Below the pieces are notes generated by a model, which made no database searches, was not told the origin of the DNA, and worked only from the letters and a program-made list of their open reading frames with translations. Below are positions 1 through 44,034 of a DNA stretch of 45,015 nt, piece after piece (the stretch's first letter is position 1; the number at the start of each line of letters is the position of its first letter). This DNA comes from Methanotrichaceae archaeon (GTDB lineage: Archaea > Halobacteriota > Methanosarcinia > Methanotrichales > Methanotrichaceae), in the NCBI GenBank assembly GCA_963754945.1, contig CAVWIG010000026.1, positions 1 to 45,015 of the forward strand. The letters are read 5' to 3'. A program made the position numbers and the translations under genes.

Positions 1-1425
1 CCCATCTTCAGGTTTGGTATAGCGAGTCCATGTTTTTGCCTGCCCTTTGTTGATAAGGTCCATAGCCTGAGTAAAGGTGTGATAGGCAAGATACGCTGAA
101 AACGCATGGAAGTAGGCTCGCGCTCTTATACGCTCTAGGGCATTGATGGTCTTCGGTATTTTCCATTCCAGGGTAAGCTCCTGCGGCACCCGGAATCCTT
201 CGACCGCGCCAGCAGGTAGGGTAAATTTGAATGAAGTACCGGTAGCCTCGGGGACTTTCCTGGCAAGGGCGGTTACCCACATCCGCGCCAGAGGCCCTGC
301 CTCAAGCGCGTAGGTCTGGCCATCTATCCTACGCTTCCAATCCTGCCAGCGTGGACTCTTCGCCCAGCTATATTTGTTTTGCCAGTCCTTTTCTTTCCCA
401 GGCCTAGCCGGGCTTTCCTCGTTCCAGGGGTGGTCTTTGCTTAACTTGTTGCCCAGCGGATCGTTTTCTATCTCCGCTGCTGGCGTCTCCTCGTAATAGG
501 AATGAGTAACGAACTCATTAGTTCCTACCTGTATTTCTACCAGGTCGGTGGTTATCAGCTTGCCATCGAGAACTATACCAGGTGTTAAAGCCCTTTTTTC
601 ACCCCAGGCAGACATATGACCATATTCCGCATCGTAGGCAAACGGGTCGTCGTACATCCCATGACTCAGAAGATTGGGAGATGTTACCCCGGTTTTATCG
701 AGTCCGACTGCTGAGCAGAAGTCCAGCAAATCGTCAAATACACAGACCAGTTCTTTGGTAAAGGCTATCTCGCGTGCTACCAGAGCATAGAAGGTCTCCA
801 AATCCTTAACATTTGTTGTCTTAGCCACTCCTCCCGGTATCAGGGTCTGAACGTGAGGATGCTTGCCGCCCATCAAAGAGGCCATCTCTATACCTACCTT
901 TGAACCGTTGAGGCATTTCCGCCACAGGCTTCCTGTAATGGGGTTCAAACCGCGCATAATGTCCCCTATAGTCTCGTACCCATGGGAGTCAACCCTGGGA
1001 GACTTGGTCCTGTTAGCCTGCGCCATAATATCGGGATTGAGCCTGGACATGATAACCTCGGAATAATCAGGGCCTTCCAGTATTCCGCACCCCAACGCAC
1101 CGTCGTACACTTCTTCGGATAGCTCGATCATATTTCTTATAGCAACGGCAAAGGGTGGTGGCGGTGCCTGGTAGCACATGTCAACAGCGAGTGCGGATGC
1201 TGTGCCATGAGGGGTCGGGCAGACGCCGCACACCCGCTGTGTGAGCCAGATAGCGTCTGCCGGTTCACGATCCTTGAGGATAACTTCAATTCCCCGGAAC
1301 ATGGTGGCGTAGCAATAGGCATCCACGTATTTTCTTTGCTCCATGTCAGCCTCGGCATGAATGCCAAGGTGTCCTTCTATCCGGGTTAAAGGCTCAATGT
1401 CAACCTCAACTTTCTGCGTGACCAT
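1..1425 (-). CDS. [NiFe]-hydrogenase large subunit, group 1h-like; 3' end runs off the window
   Basis: Translated by hand from ATG at 1425 (AGGAGG RBS upstream), open for 475 codons to base 1: MVTQKVEVDIEPLTRIEGHLGIH...FRGIEVILKDREPADAIWLTQRVCGVCPTPH (L1 Ni-binding motif)...GGKHPH...DPLGNKLSKDHPWNE...KYSWAKSPRW. Absent from the ORF track because no stop lies in the window. Confidence 0.95.
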   Translation of the reverse strand, partial: MVTQKVEVDIEPLTRIEGHLGIHAEADMEQRKYVDAYCYATMFRGIEVILKDREPADAIWLTQRVCGVCPTPHGTASALAVDMCYQAPPPPFAVAIRNMIELSEEVYDGALGCGILEGPDYSEVIMSRLNPDIMAQANRTKSPRVDSHGYETIGDIMRGLNPITGSLWRKCLNGSKVGIEMASLMGGKHPHVQTLIPGGVAKTTNVKDLETFYALVAREIAFTKELVCVFDDLLDFCSAVGLDKTGVTSPNLLSHGMYDDPFAYDAEYGHMSAWGEKRALTPGIVLDGKLITTDLVEIQVGTNEFVTHSYYEETPAAEIENDPLGNKLSKDHPWNEESPARPGKEKDWQNKYSWAKSPRWQDWKRRIDGQTYALEAGPLARMWVTALARKVPEATGTSFKFTLPAGAVEGFRVPQELTLEWKIPKTINALERIRARAYFHAFSAYLAYHTFTQAMDLINKGQAKTWTRYTKPEDG

Positions 1426-1430
1426 AGCAG

Positions 1431-2406
1431 TTATATCCTCCTTGAAATTAAATGGAACAGATGCTCCTGGGCAGTGGCGCATTCTTTTATTTGGTGCGGA
1501 CTTCCTGGAGTGGTGCCTGTTGCCAGAGATTTCGCTGGAGCCATTTCAAAGAATGGAGAAAAGGGCTCATCAGGAAAACCCGGTTCCGTGCAGCCTATAC
1601 ATGGAGACCCAACCGTGGTACAGCCGCCGAAGTGCCCGGCAAACTTATCTCGTGGCACCTGACAATAACTGATAGGTCCCTTGCAGCCGAGCCATACCAT
1701 GCAATAAGGATCACCGAACTGATACGAATATTTTCCGACCGCGAAGTAACCACCGCGGGGGCAAATATGGTGGGCGAGCTCTCCATGAAGAAACGTGAGC
1801 CGGTTGTGCTCATCAAGCTCCGGCGGCACTGTAACGACACCTCTAGCCATTAACGCAATATAAGCCAGAGCTTTGATGTAATTATCTCCCGAAGCGGGAC
1901 AGCCAGACACGTTTATCACTGGGAGGCCAAGAGCACTCCGGTAGTTCTTCCCCAGGAAATCCATTAGTCCTTTAGCCCCGGTGGGATTGGGCTTCCCGGC
2001 AACAATGCCGCCAAAGGCAGCACAGGTACCTACTGCTACAGTAGCAGCGGCTCTATCCTTTAGTTCGAGCAGTAACTCGTTGGCGGTGACTAGCTTGCCT
2101 GCTCTGTCACCAACCGAGCAGAAGAATCCTCCCTGCCGGGACGCCTGCTCTTCATCAGGAATAGAGCCCTCAAAAATAAGGAGATAAGGGGTCCAGCTTA
2201 CCTTCCCGAGCGTCAGCCAGAACGCTCAGTGCTCTTTCTCCCCACGACGCCATAATCATGGGATGAAATGCAAGTTTAATATCGCCTACTTCAGGGAGCA
2301 CGCCGGTCAGCATGTCGATGAGCGAAGGGTCACCCGCCCCGATTAGAGATACGGTATCCCCGCCGCAACTCTGTCCGTGCAGCCAAATAAGATTTATTGG
2401 TTTCAT
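1431..2406 (-). CDS. [NiFe]-hydrogenase small subunit, split by a +1 indel at 2188-2191
   Basis: ORF 2170..2406 (LIWLHGQSCGGDT) joins DPYLLIFEGSIP...AVGTCAAFGGI and ORF 1431..1964 (GCP, HHICPR, CMVWLGCKGP, GGCTTVGSPCIGCTEPGFPD) when one base is removed from the GGGG run. Confidence 0.92.
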
Positions 2407-2995: not shown

Positions 2996-4009
2996 TTAAC
3001 AAATTCTTGGTAATAATTCACCCATAGGAACGTCGACAAAACGCGAGGCTCCGAGATTGGTTTTCATCACCACACGTCCAGGATGCCCGGCTACTACTTC
3101 GCCGATAAGTGCTGATTGTTGGCCATAACAATTCATCCGTATCCCGTCTAACACTGTTGGTGCGTCTTCTGGAGCTACAATAATTACCATTTTGCCTTCA
3201 TTAGCGATGTACAACGGGTCCAGGCCGAGCATTTCACATGCGCCGCGCACGGTTCTACCGACTGGTATGGTCGCCTCTTCTATTTCAATACCAACCGATG
3301 ATTGTTGAGCGATTTCATTGAGGGTCGTTGCCAACCCGCCCCGGGTTGGGTCCCGCAGGCAATGAACATTAGGCGAATCTTGTAGGATCCGAGCAACGAG
3401 GTGATTTAATGGGGCGCAGTCACTGATAACCGATGCTTCGAATTGGAGACCTTCGCGCTTACTCATAATAGCTATTCCATGATCTCCGATAGTCCCACTT
3501 AGAATTATCTTGTCCCCAATCCGGGCATTATGCCCGGAGATATTTAACCCGTCCGGTATCTTGCCCAGACCAGAGGTATTGATAAATAGTTTATCGGCAC
3601 CGTTTTTATTAACGACCTTCGTGTCACCGGTTACGATTAATACTCCCGCTTCTTCTGCGGTTTCCTTGATCGACCTCAAGATTTGCTCGAATTCGGATAA
3701 CAACAACCCTTCCTCGATAATAAAAGAGAGACTGAGATAAACTGGTGTTGCCCCGGCAGTAGCAAGATCGTTCACTGTTCCGCAAATTGCCAGTCGGCCA
3801 ATATCTCCGCCAGGAAAAAAGATCGGGCTGACAACATAACTATCAGTCGTGAAAGCGGTCTTCCCGGGTAGATCAATAACCGCAGAGTCATCCATTCGAG
3901 TAAGTATAGGATTACCGATGACGTCAACAATGATCTTGTTGACTAATTCCTGGCTAAGCTTACCACCGCTTCCATGAGCCAAAAGGATGCGTTCGGAATT
4001 AGTGCTCAA
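2996..4009 (-). CDS. hypE: Hydrogenase maturation carbamoyl dehydratase HypE
   Basis: ILLAHGSGG, FTTDSYVVSPIFFPGGDIG, TGDTKVV, RDPTRGG and C-terminal LPRIC. Likely TTG start at 4009, overlapping the hypD stop. Confidence 0.96.
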   Translation of the reverse strand: MSTNSERILLAHGSGGKLSQELVNKIIVDVIGNPILTRMDDSAVIDLPGKTAFTTDSYVVSPIFFPGGDIGRLAICGTVNDLATAGATPVYLSLSFIIEEGLLLSEFEQILRSIKETAEEAGVLIVTGDTKVVNKNGADKLFINTSGLGKIPDGLNISGHNARIGDKIILSGTIGDHGIAIMSKREGLQFEASVISDCAPLNHLVARILQDSPNVHCLRDPTRGGLATTLNEIAQQSSVGIEIEEATIPVGRTVRGACEMLGLDPLYIANEGKMVIIVAPEDAPTVLDGIRMNCYGQQSALIGEVVAGHPGRVVMKTNLGASRFVDVPMGELLPRIC

Positions 4010-5093
4010 TTTTCTCTCCGTACTGGTAATACGCTGCACAAGCTCCCTCGGTTGATACCATACAAGGACCGATTGGGTGTTCAGGCGTACAGGAAAATCC
4101 GAAGAGTCTACAATCCACGGGAGTTGAAACACCCCGTAATATTCTGCCGCATTGACATCCCGAAGGTTCATTTGCTGGATAAATTTTGATGTCGAAATTA
4201 GTCGCTGCGTCAAACCGCTGGTAATTCCGGTTAATTCTTAATCCACTAGCGGGCACCATGCCGATACCTCGCCAATCAGCATCGCTGATCTCAAATACCT
4301 GATCCATCAGCTTTAAAGCCTGCGGATTTCCATCGACCTTTACCCCGCGACGGTAGGCGATTTCAACAGAGTAATTTTCTTTTTCGATCTGATTGACCAG
4401 CATTGCAACGGTCTGGAGTATATCCAGAGGTTCAAATCCGGATACTACGCATCCGATATTATAGTCATGCGCAATGGATTCATAGGGCCGGGAGCCAATA
4501 ACAGCGCTTACATGCCCCGGACAGATGATACCGTTCAAGCGCACTTCACCGAGGTCGAGGATGGCTTTCATGATTGGGGGACAGACTTTATGTAAACACA
4601 GGACAAAGAAATTTTGAATATTATCCCTTTCAGCCTGTATAAGGGCGGCAGCGACAGTTGGAGCCGTAGTCTCAAAGCCAATACCAATGAAAACCACTCT
4701 TTTCTTGGGATTTTCGCGAGCTATCCTAAGCGCGTCGAGAACTGAATACACTACCCTGATATCAGACCCTTTTGCCTTTGCTATCTGTAGTGTTGATTGA
4801 GTTCCCGGTACTCTTATCATGTCCCCGAAGCTCGTAACGATCACATCAGGAAGGTCGGCCAAAGCTATTGCTTTATCAATATCCGTGGTCGAGGTAACAC
4901 ATACCGGGCATCCCGGACCGGAGAGCATCTCTATATTTTTGGGTAGCAGCTGTCGAATACCGTTTTTTATTATGCTGACAGTATGACTCCCGCAAAACTC
5001 CATAAGCCTTGTTTGCCGGCGGGAGGTGTTGTGAATATACTCGATTACTTGTTTCGCCAGTTCGGCGTCACGAAACTCATCAACGAACTTCAA
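3999..5093 (-). CDS. hypD: Hydrogenase maturation protein HypD
   Basis: MEFCGSHT, GPGCPVCVT, GFETTAP, PGHVS, GFEP and GPCMVSTEGACAAYY motifs. Confidence 0.97.
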   Translation of the reverse strand: MKFVDEFRDAELAKQVIEYIHNTSRRQTRLMEFCGSHTVSIIKNGIRQLLPKNIEMLSGPGCPVCVTSTTDIDKAIALADLPDVIVTSFGDMIRVPGTQSTLQIAKAKGSDIRVVYSVLDALRIARENPKKRVVFIGIGFETTAPTVAAALIQAERDNIQNFFVLCLHKVCPPIMKAILDLGEVRLNGIICPGHVSAVIGSRPYESIAHDYNIGCVVSGFEPLDILQTVAMLVNQIEKENYSVEIAYRRGVKVDGNPQALKLMDQVFEISDADWRGIGMVPASGLRINRNYQRFDAATNFDIKIYPANEPSGCQCGRILRGVSTPVDCRLFGFSCTPEHPIGPCMVSTEGACAAYYQYGEKIEH

Positions 5094-5298
5094 GAACTTG
5101 CCTCAACAGCTCAAGTGTTTGGAGGGCTTCGGTTTCATCAAGAATACCAATGGCAAATCCGGCGTGTAGAAGCACATAATCTCCTGCCTCAGCCTCTGGG
5201 GTGAGTTGAATGCTTATCTCTCGCCTGACTCCTTCGATGCTGACAACTGCTTCCTCCCCATCAATTGACTCAACCAACGCTGGTATGGCAAGACACAT
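5080..5298 (-). CDS. hypC: Hydrogenase maturation chaperone HypC
   Basis: N-terminal MCLAIP and GDYVLLHAGFAI, 72 aa. Confidence 0.97.
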   Translation of the reverse strand: MCLAIPALVESIDGEEAVVSIEGVRREISIQLTPEAEAGDYVLLHAGFAIGILDETEALQTLELLRQVLEVR

Positions 5299-5366: not shown

Positions 5367-7664
5367 TTATATCGCTGATAACGTTCCACCGATCACTGCC
5401 TGTCCTAATGATATCCCACCATCGTTACATGGTACCTGACGGTGTAGAATTACCGAAAGTCCGTCAGCTTTAAGTAGTTTCATCGCTTGTCTAAGTAACA
5501 GCCGATTCTGAAAAACTCCGCCGGACAAAGCTACTTGAGTAATCCCGGTTTCTTTTGAGATGGTCAGGCATAAAGAAGATATCATACGAGCGATAGTATT
5601 GTGAAAGCGTGCCGCGATTACAGGAATAGGTGTGCGATTGTGTATTTCCTTTATAATTGACTGAAATATCATGTCCAGACCGATCACATGAACACTCTCA
5701 TGGTCGCGCCAGCAGAAAGGATATTCGCCAGTCTCAGATGGGTATCTGGAAGCCAGGACTTCCAATTCTATAGCTGCCTGAGCATCGTACTGTATTATGT
5801 CTCTAACTCCTAAAAGGGCTGATACGGCATCAAAAAGTCGACCGCAACTGGATGTAAGGGGAGAGTTGAGATGGCGTGATACCTGCTGGGATACGATATT
5901 CAACTCATTCTGGTCCACGTGTTCTAGAAATGGCAAGTCCGCATTAAGGATGTCATCTCCAAGTAAAGTGACCAGATACCCCACTGCTGTGCGATATGGC
6001 TTTTTTATAGCGGCATCTCCTCCAGGGAGTGGAAGATACTGCAGGTGGGCCATCCGTCTAAAACTATGGTAGTCGGCAACCAAAAATTCCCCTCCCCAGA
6101 TATGACCATCCGTTCCGAGACCTGTACCATCAAAAGCTACTCCAATAACTGGTGATGTTACCCCAGCATCGGCCATGGCGCTGACAATGTGGGCATGATG
6201 ATGCTGAACGGGGACAAAATTCAGTCCTAGACGGGTGGCCAGTTCGATGGCATATCTTGTCGATAAATAATCTGGGTGCATGTCACCGGCAATTATTTCG
6301 GGCTGAACTCGGAATATGTTCTTATATAGCTCAATAGTTTCCTCGTAATGCCGGAGAGTCTCGGGACCATCCAGGTCTCCAATATGCTGACTTACAAAAG
6401 CGTATTCATCTGCGGTAAGACAGAAAGTATTTTTCTCTTGAGCACCACATGCCAGCACGTGAAGCCCCTGGTAACTTAGTTTGACTGGAAAAGGCGCATA
6501 ACCGCGCGCTCGCCTTATAACCTGTATTTGGCCTTGTTCGATCATCGTGACACTATCATCGTAAGTCGAATGGATAAGTCGGTCATGGACTAGAAAATAG
6601 TCCGGGATTCCGGAGAGTTTTTCAAATGCTTCACCATTATCTTTAGCGATAGGTTCCTCACTCAGGTTGCCACTGGTCATTACGAGAGGTAACGCTGTTT
6701 CCCGTAAGAGTAGATGATGTAATGGAGTATAGGGAAGCATTACTCCAAGGTGACGTAATCCGGGGGCGACGGAGGGAGAGATTGTAGAATGTACTCTACG
6801 CCGGAGCAAAACGATTGGGCTTTGAGGTGATCGTAGAAGATTTACTTCCTCTTTGTTGACAAGACAATATTGTTTCAATTGCTCGATTGTCTCAACCATA
6901 ACAGCTAAGGGTTTCATTGGTCGATTTTTACGCTTTCGCAGCAGTTCGACGGCTTGAGTATTAGTAGCATCACATGCTATAAGAAATCCTCCCAGTCCCT
7001 TCAGGGCGATTATTTTACCTTGTTTCAAAAGAGAAGCTGCCGTGATAATCGGATCATTAGTATTCAATTTATTGACTTTGTTATCAAACAACTCGAGTTG
7101 AGGTCCGCAGCTCGGACATGCATTGGGTTGCGCATGGAAACGTCGGTCATGAGGATCATCATATTCTTTTAGACATTCCGGGCACATTCGAAAATGACTC
7201 ATGGTGGTGCGGGGGCGGTCATAAGGAATATCCTCGATAATCGTGAATCGAGGGCCACAGTTCGTACAATTGGTGAACGGATAATGGTAACGGCGATTTC
7301 CCGGATTAAATATCTCGCTCTGGCAATCAGCGCATGTCGCAATATCCGGAGAAACTAACTGGTATTTGCCTTCGTTAATAACGCTGCTACGGATGGTGAA
7401 ACCAATACAACCCGTCGGGTTATCATATTTTGTTAAAATGTGCTCGATAATAGCTTGGGAAGGCGGTTTTCGTGTTAAGCCCTTAAGAAACGATTGTATT
7501 AATTTCGGTTTTCCTTCAATCCATATTGTAACATCTTCTGAAGTATTGTATACCCAGCCAGATAGTTCATATTTGGCAGCAAGCTGATAAACGAAGGGTC
7601 GGAAACCGACACCTTGAACAACTCCCCTAACATTAATTTGGGCAGCTATTTTGCTTTCTATCAT
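5367..7664 (-). CDS. hypF: Carbamoyltransferase HypF
   Basis: Acylphosphatase GVVQGVGFRPFVY, zinc-finger pairs CADC/CTNC and CPEC/CPSC, HHHAH, DGTGLGTDG and PCNDGGISLGQA. Confidence 0.97.
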   Translation of the reverse strand: MIESKIAAQINVRGVVQGVGFRPFVYQLAAKYELSGWVYNTSEDVTIWIEGKPKLIQSFLKGLTRKPPSQAIIEHILTKYDNPTGCIGFTIRSSVINEGKYQLVSPDIATCADCQSEIFNPGNRRYHYPFTNCTNCGPRFTIIEDIPYDRPRTTMSHFRMCPECLKEYDDPHDRRFHAQPNACPSCGPQLELFDNKVNKLNTNDPIITAASLLKQGKIIALKGLGGFLIACDATNTQAVELLRKRKNRPMKPLAVMVETIEQLKQYCLVNKEEVNLLRSPQSPIVLLRRRVHSTISPSVAPGLRHLGVMLPYTPLHHLLLRETALPLVMTSGNLSEEPIAKDNGEAFEKLSGIPDYFLVHDRLIHSTYDDSVTMIEQGQIQVIRRARGYAPFPVKLSYQGLHVLACGAQEKNTFCLTADEYAFVSQHIGDLDGPETLRHYEETIELYKNIFRVQPEIIAGDMHPDYLSTRYAIELATRLGLNFVPVQHHHAHIVSAMADAGVTSPVIGVAFDGTGLGTDGHIWGGEFLVADYHSFRRMAHLQYLPLPGGDAAIKKPYRTAVGYLVTLLGDDILNADLPFLEHVDQNELNIVSQQVSRHLNSPLTSSCGRLFDAVSALLGVRDIIQYDAQAAIELEVLASRYPSETGEYPFCWRDHESVHVIGLDMIFQSIIKEIHNRTPIPVIAARFHNTIARMISSLCLTISKETGITQVALSGGVFQNRLLLRQAMKLLKADGLSVILHRQVPCNDGGISLGQAVIGGTLSAI

Positions 7665-8186
7665 TTTCAGTTCATTCGCTTGATTTGCGATACCTATATT
7701 TAGAGTATTCCTAAAAACCCGGCCCAGATCATATTCATTTGGTCAAGATATTGACATATGCGCGGGCCTTGAAGCAACTACAATTGTATGGATAGCAAAA
7801 AATTTCACTGAGGACATCGAGCAACACTAGACTCGCTTAACGAAATAACTAAGGATGGATTTAATTTCTTCGGATTGGAGATCGAATTATGGCGTATAGG
7901 TAACTCTCCGATTGAACTAAATTCAATGTTGTGAGTAGCTCAATGAATGAGTTCGCCAACTTCCTATTACCCCAGAAAACCAGTTTCGAATTGATTATTG
8001 GATAAAATTTGTTGAATATTTTGCACGAGCACGGCAGCACCATAAGGACAGGCAAGCCTCAACCTTGGCATTATTTACCAGTTCCCATAGGACAGGCTAA
8101 CGTTGGCCTCAGTGTTATTGCACACACGAACTCGTCTCAAAACTATTAAAATCCCTTCTGACAAATAGTATCTGAAGGGGTAGCAA

Positions 8187-8870
8187 ATGAGATTCGTCGA
8201 ACTTAACGGTTAACAATTGGGTTTTATCAAACCGTATAGACAAAATAATCGATCCTCAGAGAAGATATTACCTCTCCAAGAGTTTTTATTTATTCTATTA
8301 TTCTAGTTAATTTTTGCCTTCGGGATAATTTTGGTAGAAGATCTCCAGTCCCTTGTGTTGGGTTTTGGACTTATAGCCGCCGCCTTCACTCTAACCATGC
8401 AGGATGTTGCCAAGAATTTCGTGGGCAGTTTGAGCATATTTTTTAACCGAATATATAGGATGGTCGATCGAATAGAGATCGGCTCCAAAAAAGGAGATGT
8501 GATCGACATCGATATATTTTATACCTCGATTATGGAAACAAATGAGTAGGTTTCGGCTACCAGCCCACTGGCAGGCTTTCCATAATTCCCAACAGCTATG
8601 TTTTATCTAATACTATCAATAATTATACAAAAGATTTTGATTTTCTCTGGGACGAGATCTCTTTTCCAATAACCTATAGCAGTGACTGGAAGGCCGCGAG
8701 AACCCTCATAATTAATGCCATTGGCCTGGAGACAAAGACGACCGAAGGGCTTGCCGAGAAAGAAATATCTCGTATGGAACGCAAGTACTTTCTCTCCAGG
8801 GATTCGATGAATGTGGAAGTGTTTGTCAGTTTGACGGACAACTGGATAGAGTTGACAGCTCGATACTTAC
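8187..8870 (+). pseudogene. Degraded MscS small-conductance mechanosensitive channel
   Basis: Fragments QDVAKNFVGSLSI...DRIEIGSKKGDVIDI, a TAG at 8547, then QPTGRLSIIPNSYV...NYTKDFDFLWDEI...LTDNWIELTARY; stops, frameshifts and 3' truncation. Confidence 0.8.
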
Positions 8871-9029
8871 TTCCAGCCTCATCTGGATCATCTCCTCCAC
8901 GTCCGAGGGCAAGGCGTGGAAGATCTCCTCGAGGATCTGTTTGGCTGTCTCCAACTCAAGGGTCCTGGGATTTACCATAGGCTTGAGCTCAAGTTGTCTA
9001 GCCCCTCGCTTCCCCTGCAATTTGATCAT
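8826..9029 (-). CDS. Small hypothetical protein (LELKPMVNPRTLELETAKQILEEIFH...), possibly a remnant
   Basis: C-terminal part of ORF 8826..9137 from ATG at 9029, overlapping the stop of the upstream remnant. It resembles, from memory, small Methanotrichaceae hypotheticals. Confidence 0.4.
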   Translation of the reverse strand: MIKLQGKRGARQLELKPMVNPRTLELETAKQILEEIFHALPSDVEEMIQMRLEVSIELSTLSSCPSN

Positions 9030-9494
9030 GTCCAGGCATCCAGCGTTGTCTGGCTTTTCTGCGCTTTTGGATAAGCTTTCGAAATAAGCTTCGTCGTAGC
9101 TCTTGGCCCTCGTCGAAATAGAACACTTGATCGGCATTTTTGGTCATGTCCTCCCGAAAGTATCAGTCTGTGAGTAAAGCAGGACTGCGGCCTCTTTGGT
9201 AGCATCATGCAAACCTTGGGAGAGATACTCCACCATCTCTTGGGCGTCCTCGTAGAGCAGGGGGTCGTGCTTCGATGACGATCAAGGAGTGGCGGGCCTG
9301 GCCCAGCAGATCTCCAGGTCCTGGAACCTGCGGTCCAACCGGCTAAGGTGATGAATAGTTGCCCCAGATATAGAGGACCTCGAAGCGCTGCATGTTGAGG
9401 TTGCGGTTTGAGAGCCTTGGAGAACATTTGGGGCTACGAGGGCGTTGAAGGACCTGGGTCGAAGGGAGACAGAGGGGTGGAGATCGAAGTCCAT
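9026..9494 (-). pseudogene. Frameshifted remnant of a conserved Methanotrichaceae hypothetical protein
   Basis: Pieces in different frames: MDFDLHPSVSLRPRSFNALVAP, LNMQRFEVLYIWGNYS, LSRLDRRFQDLE, HDPLLYEDAQEMVEYLSQGLHDATKEAAVLLYS and KAQKSQTTLDAWT. Confidence 0.5.
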
Positions 9495-9623
9495 ACCATC
9501 TCGTGGGAATTACAGGGATTAAAGTGCGAGGCGAGGTAGGAGGGCGAATGTGAAGCAGATAGAAAATATGGATTCCACTCGCTCGGGACTGCCCTCTTGC
9601 CCAACATACTGGCCGTATTTATC

Positions 9624-11035
9624 TCAATAATATTGCCGGATGTATGCATATGCACGATCGAACAGATCTTGGTCGGTGTGCAGCTTGTATTTCAGGAGCG
9701 CCTTTCGGAGTTCTTTCTGAACCAAGCGCTCACCCTGGCTGGTGTGCTGCCAGTCGGGGAAGCGGACCTTCTTAACGATCTCATCAATATCGTTAACGAT
9801 GCGTTCGACGATGATGTGAGTATTCTTGCTCTTGGCTTCAGAGAAAAGCTCAGTAAGCGCTTCCTTAGCCCGGTCACGTTCTTCTTTGGGATCGGTTTCC
9901 TTTTCCGCTTCGACGACTTCTTTTGCGATTTCGAGGATTTCCTTTAGGAACTCAAGGCTAGTGAGGAAGCCCAACTCATGACGTTCCTTAACCTTCTCCA
10001 GACGTTCACCAAGGGCAACGAACTTTGGATTACCGAGATGCTTGCGTAGCCTGGCAACCAGCATGATCTCGATCTTGCGGACCTGTTTCTCCCTGTCAGC
10101 ATCACCAAGGATTTCGTTCAGCACTTGTGCATCGAGGACTAGCGTTTCAAGGTCGTCTCGCACTGATTCAACGTGGACATTCTTGTTGATGAGGTCCACA
10201 GTTTTTGCGCCGAGGGCGTGCCAGAGGAGCTTGCCGTTGCCGCTAGGCGGCTTGACGGACTCATAGACCTGAGTCAACCAGCGGTAGTCCGTCTCATATG
10301 AACTAAGGATCGGATCGGGTGACAACGCCTCCCATATCGTGCCCAGGATGTTGTAATGGTCTGCGAACTTATCCCGCATTTCATTGTTTGGTAGGCACTG
10401 TTGTGCAGCGCTCAGTCCCTCGTAACCGCCAACCGTGCGGTCAACGCCAGCGAAGAAAGCCAGGCACTTTTGCACCTGCACGGGAAGGGATTTGCGCAGA
10501 TCGTCAATGTTGGAAATGACCTTCTGCACGGCCTTTTCGTCAAAGTCAAGCGCTCTGGCTACATCGTCGAATATGCCAATATAATCCACGATCAGACCAT
10601 GCGTTTTCTCCTGGCCGAAGGTGCGGTTGGTTCGGCAGATTGCTTGAAGGAGGTTGTGGTCCTTCATTGGCTTGTCGAGGTACATTACCTGCAAGATAGG
10701 TGCATCGAAGCCTGTGAGCAGTTTACTGGTAACGATCACGAATTGGAGTGGGTCGGCCGGGTCACGGAAACGGTCGAGCAGCTTTTCCTCGGCATCCCTA
10801 TCACGGATATGCTGTTTCCATTCAGTCGGATCGCCCTGTGCAGAAGTCATAACTACGGCGCTGGCCTCAGGGTCGATCAGCTTATCCATTGCCTGCTTAT
10901 AAAGTACGCAGCACTCCCGGTCAAAAACCACCACCTGCGCTTTGAATCCGTAAGGCTCAACTTTCTGATGGAAGTGATTTACGATATGCTTCACTACGGC
11001 GCTGATGCGCTCAGGGTTCTTGACTAGAACTGCAT
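9624..11035 (-). pseudogene. hsdR: Type I restriction enzyme R subunit, C-terminal half only
   Basis: KAQVVVFDRECC, IVTSKLLTGFDAP, MYLDKPMKDHNLLQAICRTNR and GLIVDYIGIF motifs. The frame opens only after a stop near 11077. The nuclease and Walker A/DEAD regions are missing, and no hsdM or hsdS is adjacent. Confidence 0.85.
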
Positions 11036-38648: not shown

Positions 38649-38796
38649 GGTAAAGATCAATAGACTATTAGGCTTTCAATGAATTTATAGTAGATGTACG
38701 GTTTGATGCTGACAGGTATCCGTGATTTGATCCTCAATAATTGTGCCAAACCACATAAGTTTTAAGGAATGGGTGCGTATTCAGGTACAGAGTCCT

Positions 38797-41152
38797 ATGC
38801 CCATCGGCGTCTACGTCTGTCACTGCGGCCTGAACATCGCCGGCGTCCTGAACATGGATGAGCTGAAATCTTTTTCTGAGAAACTGCCGGACGTTGTCAT
38901 AGCCAGGGACCTTCCGTTCTCCTGTTCAGACGTCGGCCAGGAGCAGATCCAGAAGGACATCGCTGAGCTGAAGGTGGATCGCGTCGTGGTGGCCGCATGC
39001 TCCCCAAGGCTTCATGAACCTACTTTCAGGAGGGCCATAACCAAGGCCGGGTTGAACCCCTACATGCTGGAGATGGCCAACATCCGAGAGCAGTGCTCCT
39101 GGGTGCACATGGACCAGCCTGCAATGGCGACCCAAAAGGCCAAAGACCTGATCCGCATGGCTGTGGCCAAAGCTGCTCTGCTCCAGCCCCTGGAGAGCGC
39201 GACAATTCCTGTCAGCAGGGAAGTCTTGGTCGTCGGCGGAGGCGTTGCAGGAATTCAGGCTGCCCTTGACCTGGCCGACTCGGGGCTTCACGTCTATTTG
39301 GTGGAAAGACGGCCCACCATCGGCGGCTACATGGCCCTTCTCACGGACGTCTTCCCCACAAACGATTGCTCCATCTGCGTTCTAGCGCCAAAGATGTCCG
39401 ATGTCTACAACCACCCGCTGATCACCCTGATGACCTACTCCGAAATACTGGGCGTTGAGGGTAGCGTGGGGAACTTCAGGGTCTCTGGGGTGAAAAAGGC
39501 AAGGTTCGTTGACTTGAAGAAGTGCAAGGGCTGCATCAACGAGTGTGCTGGCGTCTGTCCTGTTGAGGTCCCTAGCGAGTACGACTTCGGGATAGGGAAG
39601 AGAAAGGCCATCTACGTGCCATTCCCACAGGCGGTGCCCCAGGTGGCCTGCGTGGACCCCCAGGCCTGCATTGGTTGTGCTCGCTGCATTGAAGCCTGCC
39701 CCGCCGATGCTGTCAACTTCGAGGAGAAGCAAGAGGAGTTCAAACTGACTGTAGGGGCAATAATCGTGGCCACGGGTTGGCAGCCCTTCGATGCAACGAG
39801 AAAAGAGGAGTACGGCTTCGGCAGGCACAGGGATGTCATAACCACCCTGCAGCTCGAGAGGATGCTCAACGCCTCAGGACCGACCAGAGGGGAGGTGGTC
39901 CGACCCTCCACAGGAGAAATCGCCAAGTCCATAGCTTTCCTGCAGTGCGTGGGCTCCAGGGACGCCACAGTGGGCAACATATACTGCTCCCGGATCTGCT
40001 GTATGGCCTCGCTAAAGAACGCTCAGCTTGTCAAGGAGAAATACCCGGAAACAAAGATAACCATTCACTACATCGATGTCAGGGCCGGCGGCGAAGGTTA
40101 TGAGGAGTTCTATCTGCGTGCCCAAAATCTGGGGATAAACTTCGTCCGGGCAAGAGTGTCCGAGATAGATGAGGAAGACGGGAGTCTTTACCTTAACTTC
40201 GAGGACACGTTATCGAGCAGCTTCAGAAGGGTCAGGTACGATCTCGCGGTCTTATCTATTGGCCTAGAGCCAGACAAGAACGCCGAAGTCCTGGGCAACC
40301 TGCTTGGCCTCTCCAGAAGGACTGACGGGTTCTTCGAGATCGCCCACCCAAAGATGAGGCCTGTCGAGGCACACATAGATGGCGTCTTCATAGCTGGCTG
40401 CGCCTCGGGACCAAAGGAGATCCAGACATCCATTGCGCAGGGCGGCGCAGCAGCGGCCAAGGCCATGAGGCTGCTGCAAAGGGCGAGCTTGAGCTTGAGC
40501 CGACCTCGGCTTACGTCGACAGAGACCTGTGCACGCAGTGCAAGCTCTGTGAGGACGTCTGCCCCAAGAGGGCGATCTCTGTCAAGAGCCCCGCACTGGT
40601 GGACGAAGCTGCCTGCAAAGGGTGCGGCTCGTGCGCTGCAGCCTGTCCCGTCGACGCGATCCAGATGCGCCTCTTCTCGGATAAGCAGATTCTGGCTCAG
40701 GTCAGGGCGGCTACGGAGGAGAAGAGCGAGTTTCCCCTCATCGTGGCGTTCCTGTGCAACTGGTGCAGCTACGGGGCAGCCGATCTGGCGGGAACATCAC
40801 GAATCCAGTACCCGACGAACGCTCGGAACATCAGGGTCATGTGCGCGGGCCGGGTGGACCCAAGCTTCATCATCGAGGCCCTCCAGCGGGGAGCGGACGG
40901 TGTTCTGGTGGCAGGCTGCCGCCTGGGTGAGTGCCATTATGTCAAGGGCAACTACCAGGCGTTGCAGAGGGTGGAGGTGCTCAAGGGCGTCCTTGAAAAG
41001 ATCGGCATCAACCCCGGAAGGGTTAAGATCGTCTGGTGCGCTGCGAGCGAGGGCGACATCTTTGCAAAGGACATCAAGCAGTTCGTTGATGAGCTGAAAG
41101 AGATGGGGCCCTATAGGAACAGAGCTCAAGGAGGCGTATGCCCGAAGCATGA
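38797..41152 (+). CDS. hdrA: Heterodisulfide reductase subunit A fused to MvhD; indels at about 40478-40483 and 41109-41112; 3' end uncertain
   Basis: GVYVCHCG, ACSPRLHE, NIREQCSWVH, GGGVAG, FPTNDCSIC, CSRICCM and GPKEI. After the frameshift come two ferredoxin motifs and MvhD (FLCNWCSYGAAD, VMCAGRVD, GCRLGECHY). Confidence 0.93.
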
Positions 41153-41502
41153 TGGAGATCGAGAAAGAGATGGAGGTAGAGGACTCTCGCATCCGGTGCA
41201 GGCAAAGGACCGCGGCATCGGAAAAGGTCCTGGATTACGATTACAAGAAGTGCGCAGGTTGCTCCATCTGCGTGGCCCTCTGCCCCAAGAGGGCCCTTGA
41301 AGAAGGGCCGCTTCAGGAGATCGCAAAGGGGATGGACGCGCCGCCGGTTCTGATCGACCTGGACGCGTGCGTCTTCTGCGGTATGTGCGCTAACTTCTGT
41401 CCCGTCCGTGCCTTCAGGATGACGGTCAAAGAGAAGACGCCAGCAACAGAGAACGCAATAGAGAATAACGCAGAGAACACGCTCGTAACTGAGACTGGCT
41501 GA
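41149..41502 (+). CDS. 2[4Fe-4S] ferredoxin; N-terminal part of the Hdr-associated polyferredoxin
   Basis: YDYKKCAGCSICVALCP and CVFCGMCANFCP; same frame as 41536..42651. Confidence 0.85.
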   Translation: MMEIEKEMEVEDSRIRCRQRTAASEKVLDYDYKKCAGCSICVALCPKRALEEGPLQEIAKGMDAPPVLIDLDACVFCGMCANFCPVRAFRMTVKEKTPATENAIENNAENTLVTETG

Positions 41503-41535
41503 AAGATACGCTGAAAGAAAGGCTTCGAGGATGGC

Positions 41536-42651
41536 ATGACAGACAAGGCTAATGATGAGGCTACGAAGAAGGCTAAGGATTTTCGGGAGCTTGAGCAGTA
41601 CCCGAAGTTGGTAGCCGAAGCAGTTCCAGGCGAGAAGTGCCTGCCCTGCCTGCTTTGCGAGCCTGTCTGCCCTACTAAGGCCATCAAAGTTACGTTCAAC
41701 AAGACCAGGGAAGACTTCGGTCCTCTCCGAAAAGGCGTAACTGGAAAGATCATCGTAGACAAGGACAAGTGCAACCTCTGCGGCCGGTGTGCCAGATTCT
41801 GTAAGGCCTTCTTGCTGGTGGAGAAGGGCGAGAAGGAAAAGACCCCCAGAGAGCTGGTGCCCTACGAGCAGCTCCTGGTGGATGAGGAGCTGTGCGACTA
41901 CTGCGGCCTGTGTGTCCCCCTATGCCCGGAAGAGGCCATAAAGGTGGAAGGCCCTCCACTGGAGTTGGATGTCGAGCCGGAGATACTAGGCAAGATAGAG
42001 ATCGATAAGGACCTGTGCATAGGCTGTGGGAGATGTGCCTTGGTCTGCCCTTACGAGGCCATTGATGTGAAGAAGCCGTTTGAGGGGGAGATTCAGCTCA
42101 TCGAGAAGAACCTCGTCAGGTGTGACCCTTTGGGATGCCAGGCCTGCTTCAACGTCTGCCCGGCCAAGTGCTGGTACGTAGACGAGCGCGGCAAGGCCGC
42201 CCCAGTGAAAGAGCAGTGTATCCTCTGCGGAGCCTGCGCCAAGGCCTGTCCGGTCTCGGCCATAGATGTAGGGCGATCAAAAGTTCGTCACACGGAGATC
42301 AAAGAGACACCCTGGGCATCGGAATGGAAGGATGCAATTTCCTCAATAGTCACCGGGGAAAAGAAGAGGCCGGATGTCTCAGCGGCCGTGACCCCACCTG
42401 AGATCGAGCGCCCGCCGCTGCCAAAAATTGAGATGCCTGTGCGAGACCCAGAACTGCAAAGGCTTGTGGAAGAGGCGCTGCGACCAGTGGTGCCTGTTCT
42501 GAAAAAACCAAAGGTCAGGTTCATAATGGAGAGGGAGCCTGCCAAAGTGGCCAGTGATAAGATCGTAGAGCGTCTGAAGAAGGCCGAGACAAAGAAGCAG
42601 ATCGAAAAGAAGAAGGAAAAGCCGCAAGAAGCAGCCGCAGAGGAGCCGTGA
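41536..42651 (+). CDS. Polyferredoxin
   Basis: Six CxxCxxCxxxC-type motifs. Confidence 0.9.
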   Translation: MTDKANDEATKKAKDFRELEQYPKLVAEAVPGEKCLPCLLCEPVCPTKAIKVTFNKTREDFGPLRKGVTGKIIVDKDKCNLCGRCARFCKAFLLVEKGEKEKTPRELVPYEQLLVDEELCDYCGLCVPLCPEEAIKVEGPPLELDVEPEILGKIEIDKDLCIGCGRCALVCPYEAIDVKKPFEGEIQLIEKNLVRCDPLGCQACFNVCPAKCWYVDERGKAAPVKEQCILCGACAKACPVSAIDVGRSKVRHTEIKETPWASEWKDAISSIVTGEKKRPDVSAAVTPPEIERPPLPKIEMPVRDPELQRLVEEALRPVVPVLKKPKVRFIMEREPAKVASDKIVERLKKAETKKQIEKKKEKPQEAAAEEP

Positions 42652-42657
42652 GATGCA

Positions 42658-43185
42658 GTGAAGGAAGACACAGAGTTCACAAATGAGGTCCTAAGGCTGG
42701 CGGGTCCTGAGGTCAGAACCTGCATCCAGTGTGGCACCTGCTCTGCTGCCTGCCCCACTGCCAACCTGATGGACAACAGCATCCGAAGGCTGGTGAAGTT
42801 TTCCCTTGAAGGCAGGAAGGAGGAGGCACTTGCGAGCGGTTCAGTATGGCTGTGCACATCGTGCCAGCTATGCACAGTCCGTTGCCCTCGCGGCATTCGG
42901 CCAAAGGTCCTTGTGGGAGCCCTCAGGGACATCTTCGAGAGAGAGGGAAGAAAGGACAAGGACCAGGCATACGAGGACCTGTTCATGCGCCAGATAAAGG
43001 ATCTAGGTAGGATATCCGAGGCTCTGCTATCCGCCGAGTACCTGCTGGCTGATCCACGGTCGGCGGTCCAGACCATGGAGATGGGACTGGAGCTGCTGCC
43101 CAGAGGCAAGATAACATTGGAGAAAGATAGGATCAAGGGAACGGATGATGTGAAGAGGATCTTCGCAGAGCTGGGGAAAGAATGA
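42658..43185 (+). CDS. hdrC: Heterodisulfide reductase subunit C
   Basis: CIQCGTCSAACP and WLCTSCQLCTVRCPRGI. Confidence 0.93.
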   Translation: MKEDTEFTNEVLRLAGPEVRTCIQCGTCSAACPTANLMDNSIRRLVKFSLEGRKEEALASGSVWLCTSCQLCTVRCPRGIRPKVLVGALRDIFEREGRKDKDQAYEDLFMRQIKDLGRISEALLSAEYLLADPRSAVQTMEMGLELLPRGKITLEKDRIKGTDDVKRIFAELGKE

Positions 43186-44034
43186 AGCTGGCTTACTATC
43201 CGGGGTGCGTCTCCCGGTCGACTGGAAAGGAGATGGACCGCTCAACCAGGGCGGTGTGCGCTGCTCTGGGAATCGATCTTGAAGAGCTGCCGGACTGGTC
43301 CTGCTGCGGAGCCACCCACGTTCCCAATGAGTTCGTCAGCACCGGCCTGGCCGTCAGGAACATCATCCAGACCGACCAACCCATAGTAACAGCCTGCTCA
43401 ATCTGCTATAGCAACCTGAGAAACGCAGTGCTGCGAATGGAGGTGCCGGAGGTCCGTGCTAAGGTTGACGCTGTCCTGACCAAAAGCTACAAGGGCGCCC
43501 GGATCAGGCACGTCCTCGATGTCATACTTGAAGTGCTTCAGAAGGATGACGACAGGTTAGTAGTTCCATTAAATGACCTCAAGGCAGCACCCTATTACGG
43601 CTGTCTGCTGACCAGGCCGAAGGGCGGCATAGACAGCCCTGAGGTCCCAACTATCATGGAGGGACTCATAAAGACACTTGAAGGCAGAACCAGTAGATTT
43701 CGGGCTCAAAGCCTTCTGCTGCGCAGGTCCCATATTCATGCCCCAGGAGGAAGCAGCAGCGGATATAATCTACCGCATTCTAAAAGACGCAAAGAAGGCC
43801 GGAGCGGAGGTCATCGTGACTGTTTGTCCGCTTTGCCATCTGATGCTGGACGCCAAGCAGAAGGTCCTGGAGCAGAGGCGCGGTGAGAAGATCGGACTTC
43901 CTGTCCTTTACGTGACTCAGCTCGTCGGGATAGCCCTAGGCCTGGGGCCTGAGGAGCTGGGGCTTAATATGAACTCTGTGTCGCCGATGCCGATGGTGGA
44001 AAATGTGTACGAGAGGATGGCCCAGCAGGGATGA
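43182..44034 (+). CDS. hdrB: Heterodisulfide reductase subunit B, +1 indel at about 43678-43684
   Basis: YYPGC, DWSCCGA, ACSIC and YYGCLLTRP in ORF 43182; CCAG, VCPLCHLMLD and PVLYVTQL in ORF 43678..44034. Confidence 0.92.

Follow-up and report, generated by a model that had tools for sequence, protein, structure and literature searches.

High-affinity hydrogenases of the Hhy type, which fall in [NiFe] group 1h, respire trace atmospheric H2 with O2, a process with no evident counterpart in a methanogen. Relatives of Methanothrix are major acetoclastic methane producers, and textbooks regard their family as obligate acetate-splitters without hydrogenases. Here, we analysed the first 45,015 bases of contig C26 of a Methanotrichaceae metagenome-assembled genome (MAG; G000), a stretch referred to as the window, which encodes the two subunits of a [NiFe] hydrogenase at positions 1 to 2406 of the minus strand. 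Judged by its sequence, the enzyme is 1h-like but not canonical 1h, and it belongs to a clade of its own, most of whose members come from MAGs of anaerobe-associated lineages such as Bathyarchaeia, Dehalococcoidia, and Korarchaeia. We consider it quite probable that the locus encodes a two-subunit [NiFe] hydrogenase of this distinct, non-canonical 1h-like clade and lies on a recently transferred Methanotrichaceae island.

The best solved relative of both subunits is the actinobacterial-type hydrogenase AH of Cupriavidus necator (HofK/HofG, PDB entry 5AA5, group 1h). According to the available part of PMC11023054, its proximal cluster is held by three Cys and one Asp, and replacement of the Asp abolishes O2 insensitivity; a table in the same review lists the enzyme as low-affinity, with a Km of about 4 μM. 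Korarchaeal enzymes of anaerobic lineages, from marine and hydrothermal MAGs, have been labelled "1h" by HydDB, and the accessible sections of the two reports (PMC10469681, PMC10667645) give no motif, phylogeny, or transfer analysis. The HydDB paper itself points out that distant 1h members may differ in core function (PMC5037454). Methanothrix and its relatives are described, in the portions available of a review and a genus description (PMC8019784, PMC10598746), as lacking Ech, Frh, Mvh, and Vht/Vho, and an "mbhAB" hydrogenase has been mentioned in a Methanothrix bin, with negligible measured hydrogenase activity (PMC6687939). Group 1 goes unmentioned in the main text of a Cell 2024 paper on archaeal hydrogenases, and a comparative paper on anaerobic methanotrophic archaea contained nothing relevant. 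In the literature outside subscription journals, we found neither a description of the clade as a separate subgroup nor a 1h-like enzyme in Methanotrichaceae.

The large-subunit gene begins at 1425, preceded by a GGAGG ribosome-binding site, and the C-terminus of its product, including the L2 motif, is lost at the contig start. A second, intact copy lies on contig C42 of the same MAG. All four Cys of the Ni-Fe site are conserved, the L1 pair in the window and the L2 pair as seen in the C42 copy only. The features of the two subunit genes are as follows.

1..1425, minus strand: [NiFe] hydrogenase large subunit, residues 1-475 of 580 (open reading frame list, Pfam PF00374, C42 copy, 5AA5_C).
1207..1239, minus strand: L1 Ni-binding motif QRVCGVCPTPH with Cys66 and Cys69 (sequence).
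1057-1074, minus strand: GPDYSE block of the large subunit.
940-984, minus strand: HGYETIGDIMRGLNP, in the large subunit.
448-462, minus strand: DPLGN, in the large subunit.
421-432, minus strand: HPWN, in the large subunit.
346-375, minus strand: KYSWAKSPRW, in the large subunit.
1431..2406, minus strand: small-subunit gene, 324 aa if one extra base is skipped (Pfam PF01058 and PF14720; 5AA5_A, 210 bits).
2356..2370, minus strand: SCGGD, the first two proximal-cluster ligand positions, Cys14 and Asp17 (alignment to 5AA5 chain A).
1590..1628, minus strand: medial-cluster motif with a fourth Cys, GGCTTVGSPCIGC (small-subunit alignment).
2188..2191: homopolymer, plus-strand GGGG against GGG in C42; the additional base shifts the small-subunit frame (pairwise alignment).

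Both proteins were identified by Pfam and NCBIfam as group 1-type [NiFe] subunits, with all scores far under the named equivalog cut-offs. The profiles PF00374, PF01058, and PF14720 all match, and 12 of 12 cluster ligand positions are occupied. Against PDB chains, the large subunit matched 5AA5_C at 436 bits (E 1.3e-129), followed by E. coli Hyd-2 at 181 bits, and the small subunit matched 5AA5 chain A at 210 bits (E 3.8e-61), followed by a match of 145 bits. Such similarity greatly exceeds chance, and the homology to 5AA5 is enough to fix the fold. A sequence-only reading of this DNA, made earlier, had proposed group 1h-like signatures, and the motifs that it cited are all present in these two proteins. 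Like C. necator AH, the query combines a Tat-less small subunit (Tat, twin-arginine translocation), a C-x-x-D motif, and a fourth medial Cys, and the blocks GxDxxE...HGYxTIxDIMxxLNP and DPLGN...HPWN are common to the two enzymes. The small subunit starts at 2406, 13 residues precede its first cluster Cys, and there is no room for a Tat leader because an in-frame stop lies 6 codons upstream, which bears out the earlier claim for this protein; being Tat-less, the enzyme is presumably cytoplasmic. Asp17 aligns with the Asp of C-D-G-D in 5AA5 and in three of three canonical 1h small subunits, and from this alignment we infer a proximal cluster held by three Cys and Asp17. The extra medial Cys stands where four of five other anchors have Pro (E. 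coli HyaA, Rhizobium HupS, Alteromonas, and C. acetobutylicum), as the earlier reading had it, and the medial cluster is predicted to be [4Fe-4S]. In the large subunit, DPLGN...HPWN is a true insertion of ~13 residues relative to the 1c/1d anchors. GPDYSE...LNP, taken earlier for an insertion, turned out to be a signature block common to the query and 1h, in a region where the 1c/1d anchors are ~25 residues longer.

The two enzymes also differ clearly. C. necator AH is ~39% identical to the query. Its L1 motif, shared by three of three canonical anchors shown, reads SRICGICGDNH versus QRVCGVCPTPH here, and L2 reads DPCLPCGVH in C. necator AH and the shown canonical anchors versus DPCLACCVG. 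Near the C-terminus, NYHPYPPTPWN contrasts with RYQIITPTAWN. The pHG1 operon of C. necator carries a NifU-family gene, DUF5947, DUF6084, and one further gene in the interval from the large subunit to the protease, whereas the Methanotrichaceae island has none of these and places the protease directly after the large subunit with nothing between. The same interval content was found in the two canonical records with wide flanks; a third (Methylocystis, cut short) shows an unnamed protein followed by DUF5947 and DUF6084, so that these two families occur in three of three canonical operons and the NifU-family label in two of three. The absence of NifU-family, DUF5947, and DUF6084 genes applies to the island, the rest of the genome not having been searched for them. 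C. necator is an aerobic host, in contrast to the strict-anaerobe lineage of the query.

To place the enzyme, relatives were collected by several searches. On plasmids, tblastn recovered four canonical 1h genes at 39.3-41.5% identity (M. intracellulare, Methylocystis, C. necator pHG1, and Streptomyces), and the next record, among the best 40 of 130, had 30.9%. At least 120 clusters (90% identity) share 53-92% identity with the query large subunit. The named close relatives belong to Methanotrichaceae, Dehalococcoidia, Planctomycetota, Bathyarchaeia, Korarchaeota/Thermoproteota, Nitrososphaerales, Altiarchaeales, and a "Thaumarchaeota" single-cell genome. In a 50%-identity library, the whole clade is covered by one representative at 56%, with the following matches at 45%, 41%, and 39%. 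The tree comprised 63 rows, namely the query, 13 clade proteins, 18 named genome loci, 13 intermediate representatives, 10 anchors (4 canonical 1h and 6 other named), and 8 distant sequences. Rows were hand-picked from the hit lists, and two long-branch rows of the first tree were removed. The 1h references are the four plasmid-borne genes and not the HydDB set, and the trees include no named 1g or 1j reference.

The careful LG+G4 tree recovered a 1h-like superclade (100/100) containing canonical 1h (7 rows, 100/100) and the query clade (25 rows, 100/99). The query clade forms a 30-row half (91/91) together with a Nitrososphaerota/Thermoproteota group and a Thermoplasmata sequence, and canonical 1h stands in the other half, alongside Acidobacteriota and Caldilineaceae lineages. 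A quick tree under LG+C20 with posterior mean site frequencies recovered the same clades without resolving their mutual order, and an earlier 64-row quick tree agrees with the groups of the 63-row tree. The query is thus placed within the superclade and outside the clade of the four named canonical anchors. When the three Methanotrichaceae-type rows, a group defined after the tree was seen, were forced with canonical 1h, the log-likelihood dropped by 193 units (approximately unbiased (AU) test, p-AU = 2e-56). This placement supports the suggestion of a clade apart from canonical 1h, made up mainly of anaerobe-associated lineages. The Hhy-type 1h enzymes of mycobacteria and streptomycetes share the superclade and the small-subunit signatures with the query, but fall in the canonical clade that excludes it, at 40-41.5% identity and with the accessory genes present. 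In contrast, the korarchaeal/Thermoproteota sequences L027 ("Kor1") and P0068 lie inside the query clade, with 59-60% identity and C-x-x-D, and the published korarchaeal "1h" enzymes are likely to belong there too. Judging by those published calls, HydDB would be expected to return 1h for the query.

The methanogen-type hydrogenases proved to be far more distant. The methanophenazine-reducing Vht/Vho of Methanosarcina (1k) and the query are both group 1 [NiFe] enzymes of the uptake type in the same archaeal class, but Vht/Vho carries a Tat leader, a downstream membrane subunit, and a standard C-x-x-C, all of which the query lacks, and is 29-35% identical to it in partial matches. The presumed Vht/Vho large subunits (L099 and L106, from Methanosarcina-like genomes) fall in an 18-row outgroup, separated from a 49-row superclade with support of 100; their loci encode a Tat-bearing small subunit, a large subunit of 592-597 aa, and a downstream membrane protein. 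The 1k label of these anchors derives from this operon shape, with a downstream protein that is truncated and has no Pfam match. A second large-subunit type of 497 aa, from another family of the class, is also in the outgroup. The Mvh and Frh large subunits in the PDB align to residues ~3-120 only, at 60-68 bits, and in NCBIfam, VhuA reached 62 bits (cut-off 800) and FrhA 49 bits (cut-off 392.5). These results agree with the earlier statement that the enzyme is not of a methanogen type.

Motif comparisons across the clade revealed both fixed and variable positions. All 26 clade sequences carry Q-R-x-C-G-V-C as L1, with Pro next in 25, and their L2 is DPC-x-x-C-x-x followed by His (14 of 26), Gln (9), or Gly (3). 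Gly occurs in the three Methanotrichaceae-type sequences and was also found in the family genomes G002 and G090. All 18 superclade small subunits have the fourth medial Cys. At the second proximal position, the 15 non-canonical superclade small subunits divide into 6 with C-x-x-D (the query, two Dehalococcoidia, Kor1, and two Nitrososphaerota/Thermoproteota sequences) and 9 with C-x-x-C (Bathyarchaeia, Heimdallarchaeota, Altarchaeum, Desulfobacteria, Methanosarcinales MAGs, a "Nitrosotalea"-labelled MAG, and Thermoplasmata). The trait changes at least 6 times on the tree (three states, 23 rows). RRxF Tat leaders are found in 3 of the 15. The sequence-only reading described the query correctly on both counts, the Asp aligning with that of canonical 1h and the Tat leader being absent, but neither trait extends to the clade as a whole. 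At the position that is otherwise C-x-x-C or C-x-x-D, the small subunits of C. acetobutylicum and Hymenobacter (L022, L024) show C-x-x-N. A conserved basic tail, R-[FLM]-x-x-R-[KS]-I, closes most small subunits of the clade (...HLISRRI in the query) and may mediate docking or membrane association; the canonical 1h tail is different and longer. Four loci labelled as Desulfobacteria, "Nitrosotalea sp.", and two Methanosarcinales MAGs (L036, L037, L038, and L040) carry a near-same hydrogenase (branch lengths 0.06-0.13), which points to either further transfer or binning errors, and L038 has a Tat leader added, with tatA/tatC genes close by.

The hydrogenase genes form an island of ~8.3 kb in the order hypF-hypC-hypD-hypE-small subunit-large subunit-endopeptidase. 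Its homology ends at ~7729, where blastn to G002 stops at 7729 and that to the family genome G079 at 7693. The maturation genes in the window are the following.

2996..4213, minus strand: hypE (Pfam AIRS and AIRS_C).
3999..5093, minus strand: hypD (Pfam PF01924, E 9e-152).
5080..5298, minus strand: hypC (Pfam PF01455).
5367..7664, minus strand: hypF (Pfam HypF domains).

No membrane or cytochrome b subunit was found at the island, and its boundaries show no tandem repeats, no meaningful direct or inverted repeats, and no tRNA genes. Among the 126 proteins that flank 14 related loci, we found a HycI protease at 13 loci and at least one hyp gene at 8; cytochrome b and the canonical accessory families (NifU-family, DUF5947, DUF6084) occur in none, and no partner protein is common to the 14. 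In one Thermoproteota locus, a Tat-type small subunit is followed by a Fer4_11 protein. In the Bathyarchaeia MAG locus L034 (10207-15247), genes for a Pyr_redox_2 flavoprotein and a heme-copper oxidase subunit I (COX1) are found within a few kb of the clade hydrogenase, which is unexpected for a lineage usually deemed anaerobic. A gene for a FolE2-type GTP cyclohydrolase adjoins the hydrogenase locus in two distant clade members (L036:4033-5001 and L040:10344-11315) and is also found at the island flank in G079 (L014:1641-2258).

Of 105 species-representative genomes in the family, 4 carry the island (3 of 104 besides G000), from 3 of 16 genera; among high-quality genomes, the count is 3 of 64. 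Among 301 sampled genomes of the class, the enzyme occurs in the same four only (G000, G002, G079, and G090). It is missing from two same-genus genomes that are 93% and 99% complete. The Methanotrichaceae copies of the enzyme share 95-96% protein identity. Between genera, the island DNA is 93.8-96.8% identical, whereas the mch region reaches 75-78% in the same comparisons and 90-92% inside the genus, a difference from which recent horizontal spread is deduced. The flanks of the island differ in all four genomes, transposase genes adjoin it in G000 (C42) and G002, and in G002 it is located within a 234 kb contig. Taken together, the sequence comparisons indicate that the island has recently spread horizontally among a small number of Methanotrichaceae. 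Phylogenetically, the family's sequences are nested within a subclade of 10 rows (100/100) whose named members are Dehalococcoidia and Planctomycetota, and a bacterial donor appears likely. With three pairs each, the ratio of nonsynonymous to synonymous substitution rates (dN/dS) was 0.135-0.193 in the large subunit and 0.13-0.23 in HypE, and six small-subunit pairs, where counts were low, gave 0.24-0.61; the set left out the G079 large subunit and all hypD pairs.

The small-subunit gene is split in the window into two open reading frames (2170-2406 and 1431-2165), and the island is represented twice in G000. C42 carries hypF (partial, truncated at the start of the contig), hypD, hypE, the small subunit (324 aa), the large subunit (580 aa, C42:4047-5789, differing from the window copy at 2 of 475 residues), and the HycI-family endopeptidase. 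C26:1-2455 and C42:5471-3018 are 98.9% identical, and C26:2992-5713 and C42:2722-1 are 98.2% identical. Each of the two contigs ends within the other's copy, and no further G000 contig matches the hydrogenase region. In G002, a 97%-complete family genome in 7 contigs, the same genes form a single contiguous block of ~8.3 kb (L013 9444-17757) that matches both C42:1-6300 and C26:1-7729. Since the contig ends complement each other and G002 has one copy only, C26 and C42 are probably two strain haplotypes of one locus, that of the window frameshifted and that of C42 intact. Two near-identical NuoC/NuoD-like (FpoD-type) genes, at C1:8316-10040 and C30:2-1282 with one cut by a contig end, repeat the C26/C42 pattern and suggest strain heterogeneity in the MAG.

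The integrity of the homopolymer at 2188-2191 was further examined in public sequencing runs, which were checked as assembled contigs (at most 0.36 of the sampled words per run). The homopolymer is spanned, without the extra base, by two contigs of run X3, and contigs of runs X1 and X2 stop just short of it. The single extra base could equally well be an assembly error. The RNA run X20 yielded one 423-nt contig with 27 differences over 1714-2135, which is no demonstration of transcription of this gene. Frameshift, truncation, host identity, and transfer pattern had all gone unremarked in the sequence-only reading, which was otherwise accurate as to the motifs present. Beyond the island on C42, at 6433-6948, lies a flavin-reductase-domain protein with a rubredoxin-like C-terminal CxxC...CxxC tail, and C42:7909-8217 is a short N-terminal fragment resembling a flavodiiron protein, with transposase-like open reading frames nearby (C42:8147-9474). 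These O2-stress-type genes are outside the conserved island.

The remainder of the window is typical of the host. G000 is 87.7% complete with 3.2% estimated contamination, and contains one McrA, whose 90%-identity cluster is named Methanothrix sp./Methanotrichaceae archaeon. The window encodes mch, the methanogenesis marker DUF2114, exosome, proteasome, RNase P, and ribosomal genes, and from ~11 kb onward it is 90-92% identical to two same-genus genomes. The large subunit of the island is the sole true hydrogenase large subunit found in G000, the other PF00374 matches being NuoCD/FpoD-like proteins without Ni-binding cysteines, and neither MvhA nor MvhG was found in the genome. An hdr cluster is situated 36 kb away from the hydrogenase (38743-43886, plus strand) and encodes an HdrA-like protein (784 aa), a polyferredoxin (371 aa), and HdrC-like and HdrB-like (CCG domain) proteins. 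The region 7730-11000 shows no synteny with the same-genus genomes. It includes a multi-copy repeat at ~8870-9560, probably an insertion sequence or miniature inverted-repeat transposable element, with further copies on C20, C43, and C39 of G000 and dozens of copies (70-95% identical) in the same-genus genomes G010 and G011. An open reading frame at 9624-10994 (minus strand) has only a type I restriction R-subunit domain 3 (T1R_D3-like) and is probably a fragment.

Several observations weigh against a functional hydrogenase of a separate clade acquired by transfer. HypA was found neither in G000, G002, G079, and G090 nor in two same-genus genomes (two matches of ~21 bits remained under the cut-off), and HypB in G000 is represented by a single sub-threshold match (52.6 bits, cut-off 121), which leaves nickel insertion without an explanation. 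No redox partner is encoded in the island or the 14 related loci, and the direction of catalysis and the acceptor are deduced rather than observed. The 1-nt frameshift disrupts the window small subunit, and the C-terminal processing site of the Methanotrichaceae copies has Gly in place of the His or Gln of most of the clade, at a cleavage position where His or Arg is usual. As regards the tree, the AU test used an after-the-fact grouping, and the donor is deduced from a subclade with organism names for only 5 of its 10 rows, in a clade whose internal branching is unrooted. Less probably, C26 and C42 could be a true duplication and not two haplotypes.

These points were weighed with four other explanations. 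That the enzyme is an ordinary canonical 1h hydrogenase (Hhy/AH type) engaged in high-affinity, O2-linked scavenging of trace H2 would fit with 5AA5 as the best structural relative, with the shared C-x-x-D, four-Cys medial motif, Tat-lessness, and DPLGN/HPWN blocks, and with the HydDB label "1h" given, in the available parts of PMC10469681 and PMC10667645, to korarchaeal enzymes that are likely of the same clade. We nevertheless regard it as very improbable in view of the low identity to canonical enzymes, the separate, well-supported clade and the AU result, the deviating L1 and L2, the absence of accessory genes from the island and 14 of 14 loci, and the strict-anaerobe host lineage. C. necator AH is itself low-affinity in the available part of PMC11023054, and low-H2 scavenging, as put forward in the sequence-only reading, is not implied by the signatures. 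An enzyme of a methanogen type, that is Vht/Vho (1k), Archaeoglobus-type (1j), or Frh/Mvh (group 3), is hardly credible; the VhuA and FrhA matches that would favour it are weak and far under their cut-offs, and in the direct comparisons, which covered 1k and group 3, the N-terminally confined PDB matches, the missing Tat leader and membrane or cytochrome b subunit, and the outgroup position of L099 and L106 all speak against it.

Decay of the island into a non-functional acquisition, a pseudogene locus, would account for the frameshift, the lack of HypA/HypB, the Gly at the processing site, the nearby transposase genes, and the rarity of the island in the family. This explanation seems unlikely, though less so than a canonical 1h enzyme, since small subunits are intact (324 aa) in the C42 haplotype, G002, G079, and G090, all 12 cluster ligands and the four Ni-Fe Cys are conserved, and the large-subunit dN/dS is low at 0.135-0.193; moreover, two environmental contigs lack the extra base. 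Bacterial contamination or a binning error is suggested by the nearest named relatives beyond the family, Dehalococcoidia and Planctomycetota, and by the 3.2% contamination of the MAG. It is extremely improbable: the same 45 kb contig carries mch, DUF2114, archaeal exosome, proteasome, and RNase P genes, and hdrACB, this part is 90-92% identical to same-genus genomes, and the contig is on these grounds not mis-binned bacterial DNA, while the island is also embedded in the 234 kb contig of G002. We therefore retain as quite probable the reading of a non-canonical 1h-like hydrogenase on a transferred island.

The conserved ligands and the homology to 5AA5 allow a mechanism to be proposed. H2 would be split at a Ni-Fe site held by Cys66 and Cys69 of L1 and by Cys557 and Cys560 of L2 (seen in C42 only). 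Electrons would leave through three small-subunit clusters, a proximal [4Fe-4S] cluster bound by three Cys and Asp17, a medial one bound by four Cys, and a distal one bound by His and three Cys, and would then pass to an acceptor that is not encoded at the locus. A role in H2 uptake is likely because the enzyme is of group 1 type. More tentatively, and as a possibility to which we assign less than even chances, a few lineages of the Methanothrix family may have gained a self-contained cytoplasmic uptake hydrogenase with an Asp-ligated, AH-like relay, probably from Dehalococcoidia-like bacteria, and may oxidise H2 for heterodisulfide/CO2 reduction or for O2 detoxification at oxic-anoxic interfaces, with the wider clade representing an uncharacterised subgroup, mostly of anaerobe-associated lineages, in which Cys and Asp have switched repeatedly at the proximal cluster. 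The O2-detoxification option is considered because the intact copy adjoins the flavin-reductase/rubredoxin-like gene and the flavodiiron-like fragment.

Public data contain many members of the clade, which the usual classifier subsumes under "1h" and of which none is known to have been characterised, and its natural Cys/Asp variation at the proximal cluster offers a ready-made test of the ligand's role. The most interesting point is the mobile cassette itself, in a methanogen family described as lacking methanogen-type hydrogenases. Such a cassette of hydrogenase and maturation genes would add H2 to the possible electron donors of the family, and could bear on CO2 reduction or on the tolerance of oxygenated wetland soils in some Methanotrichaceae.

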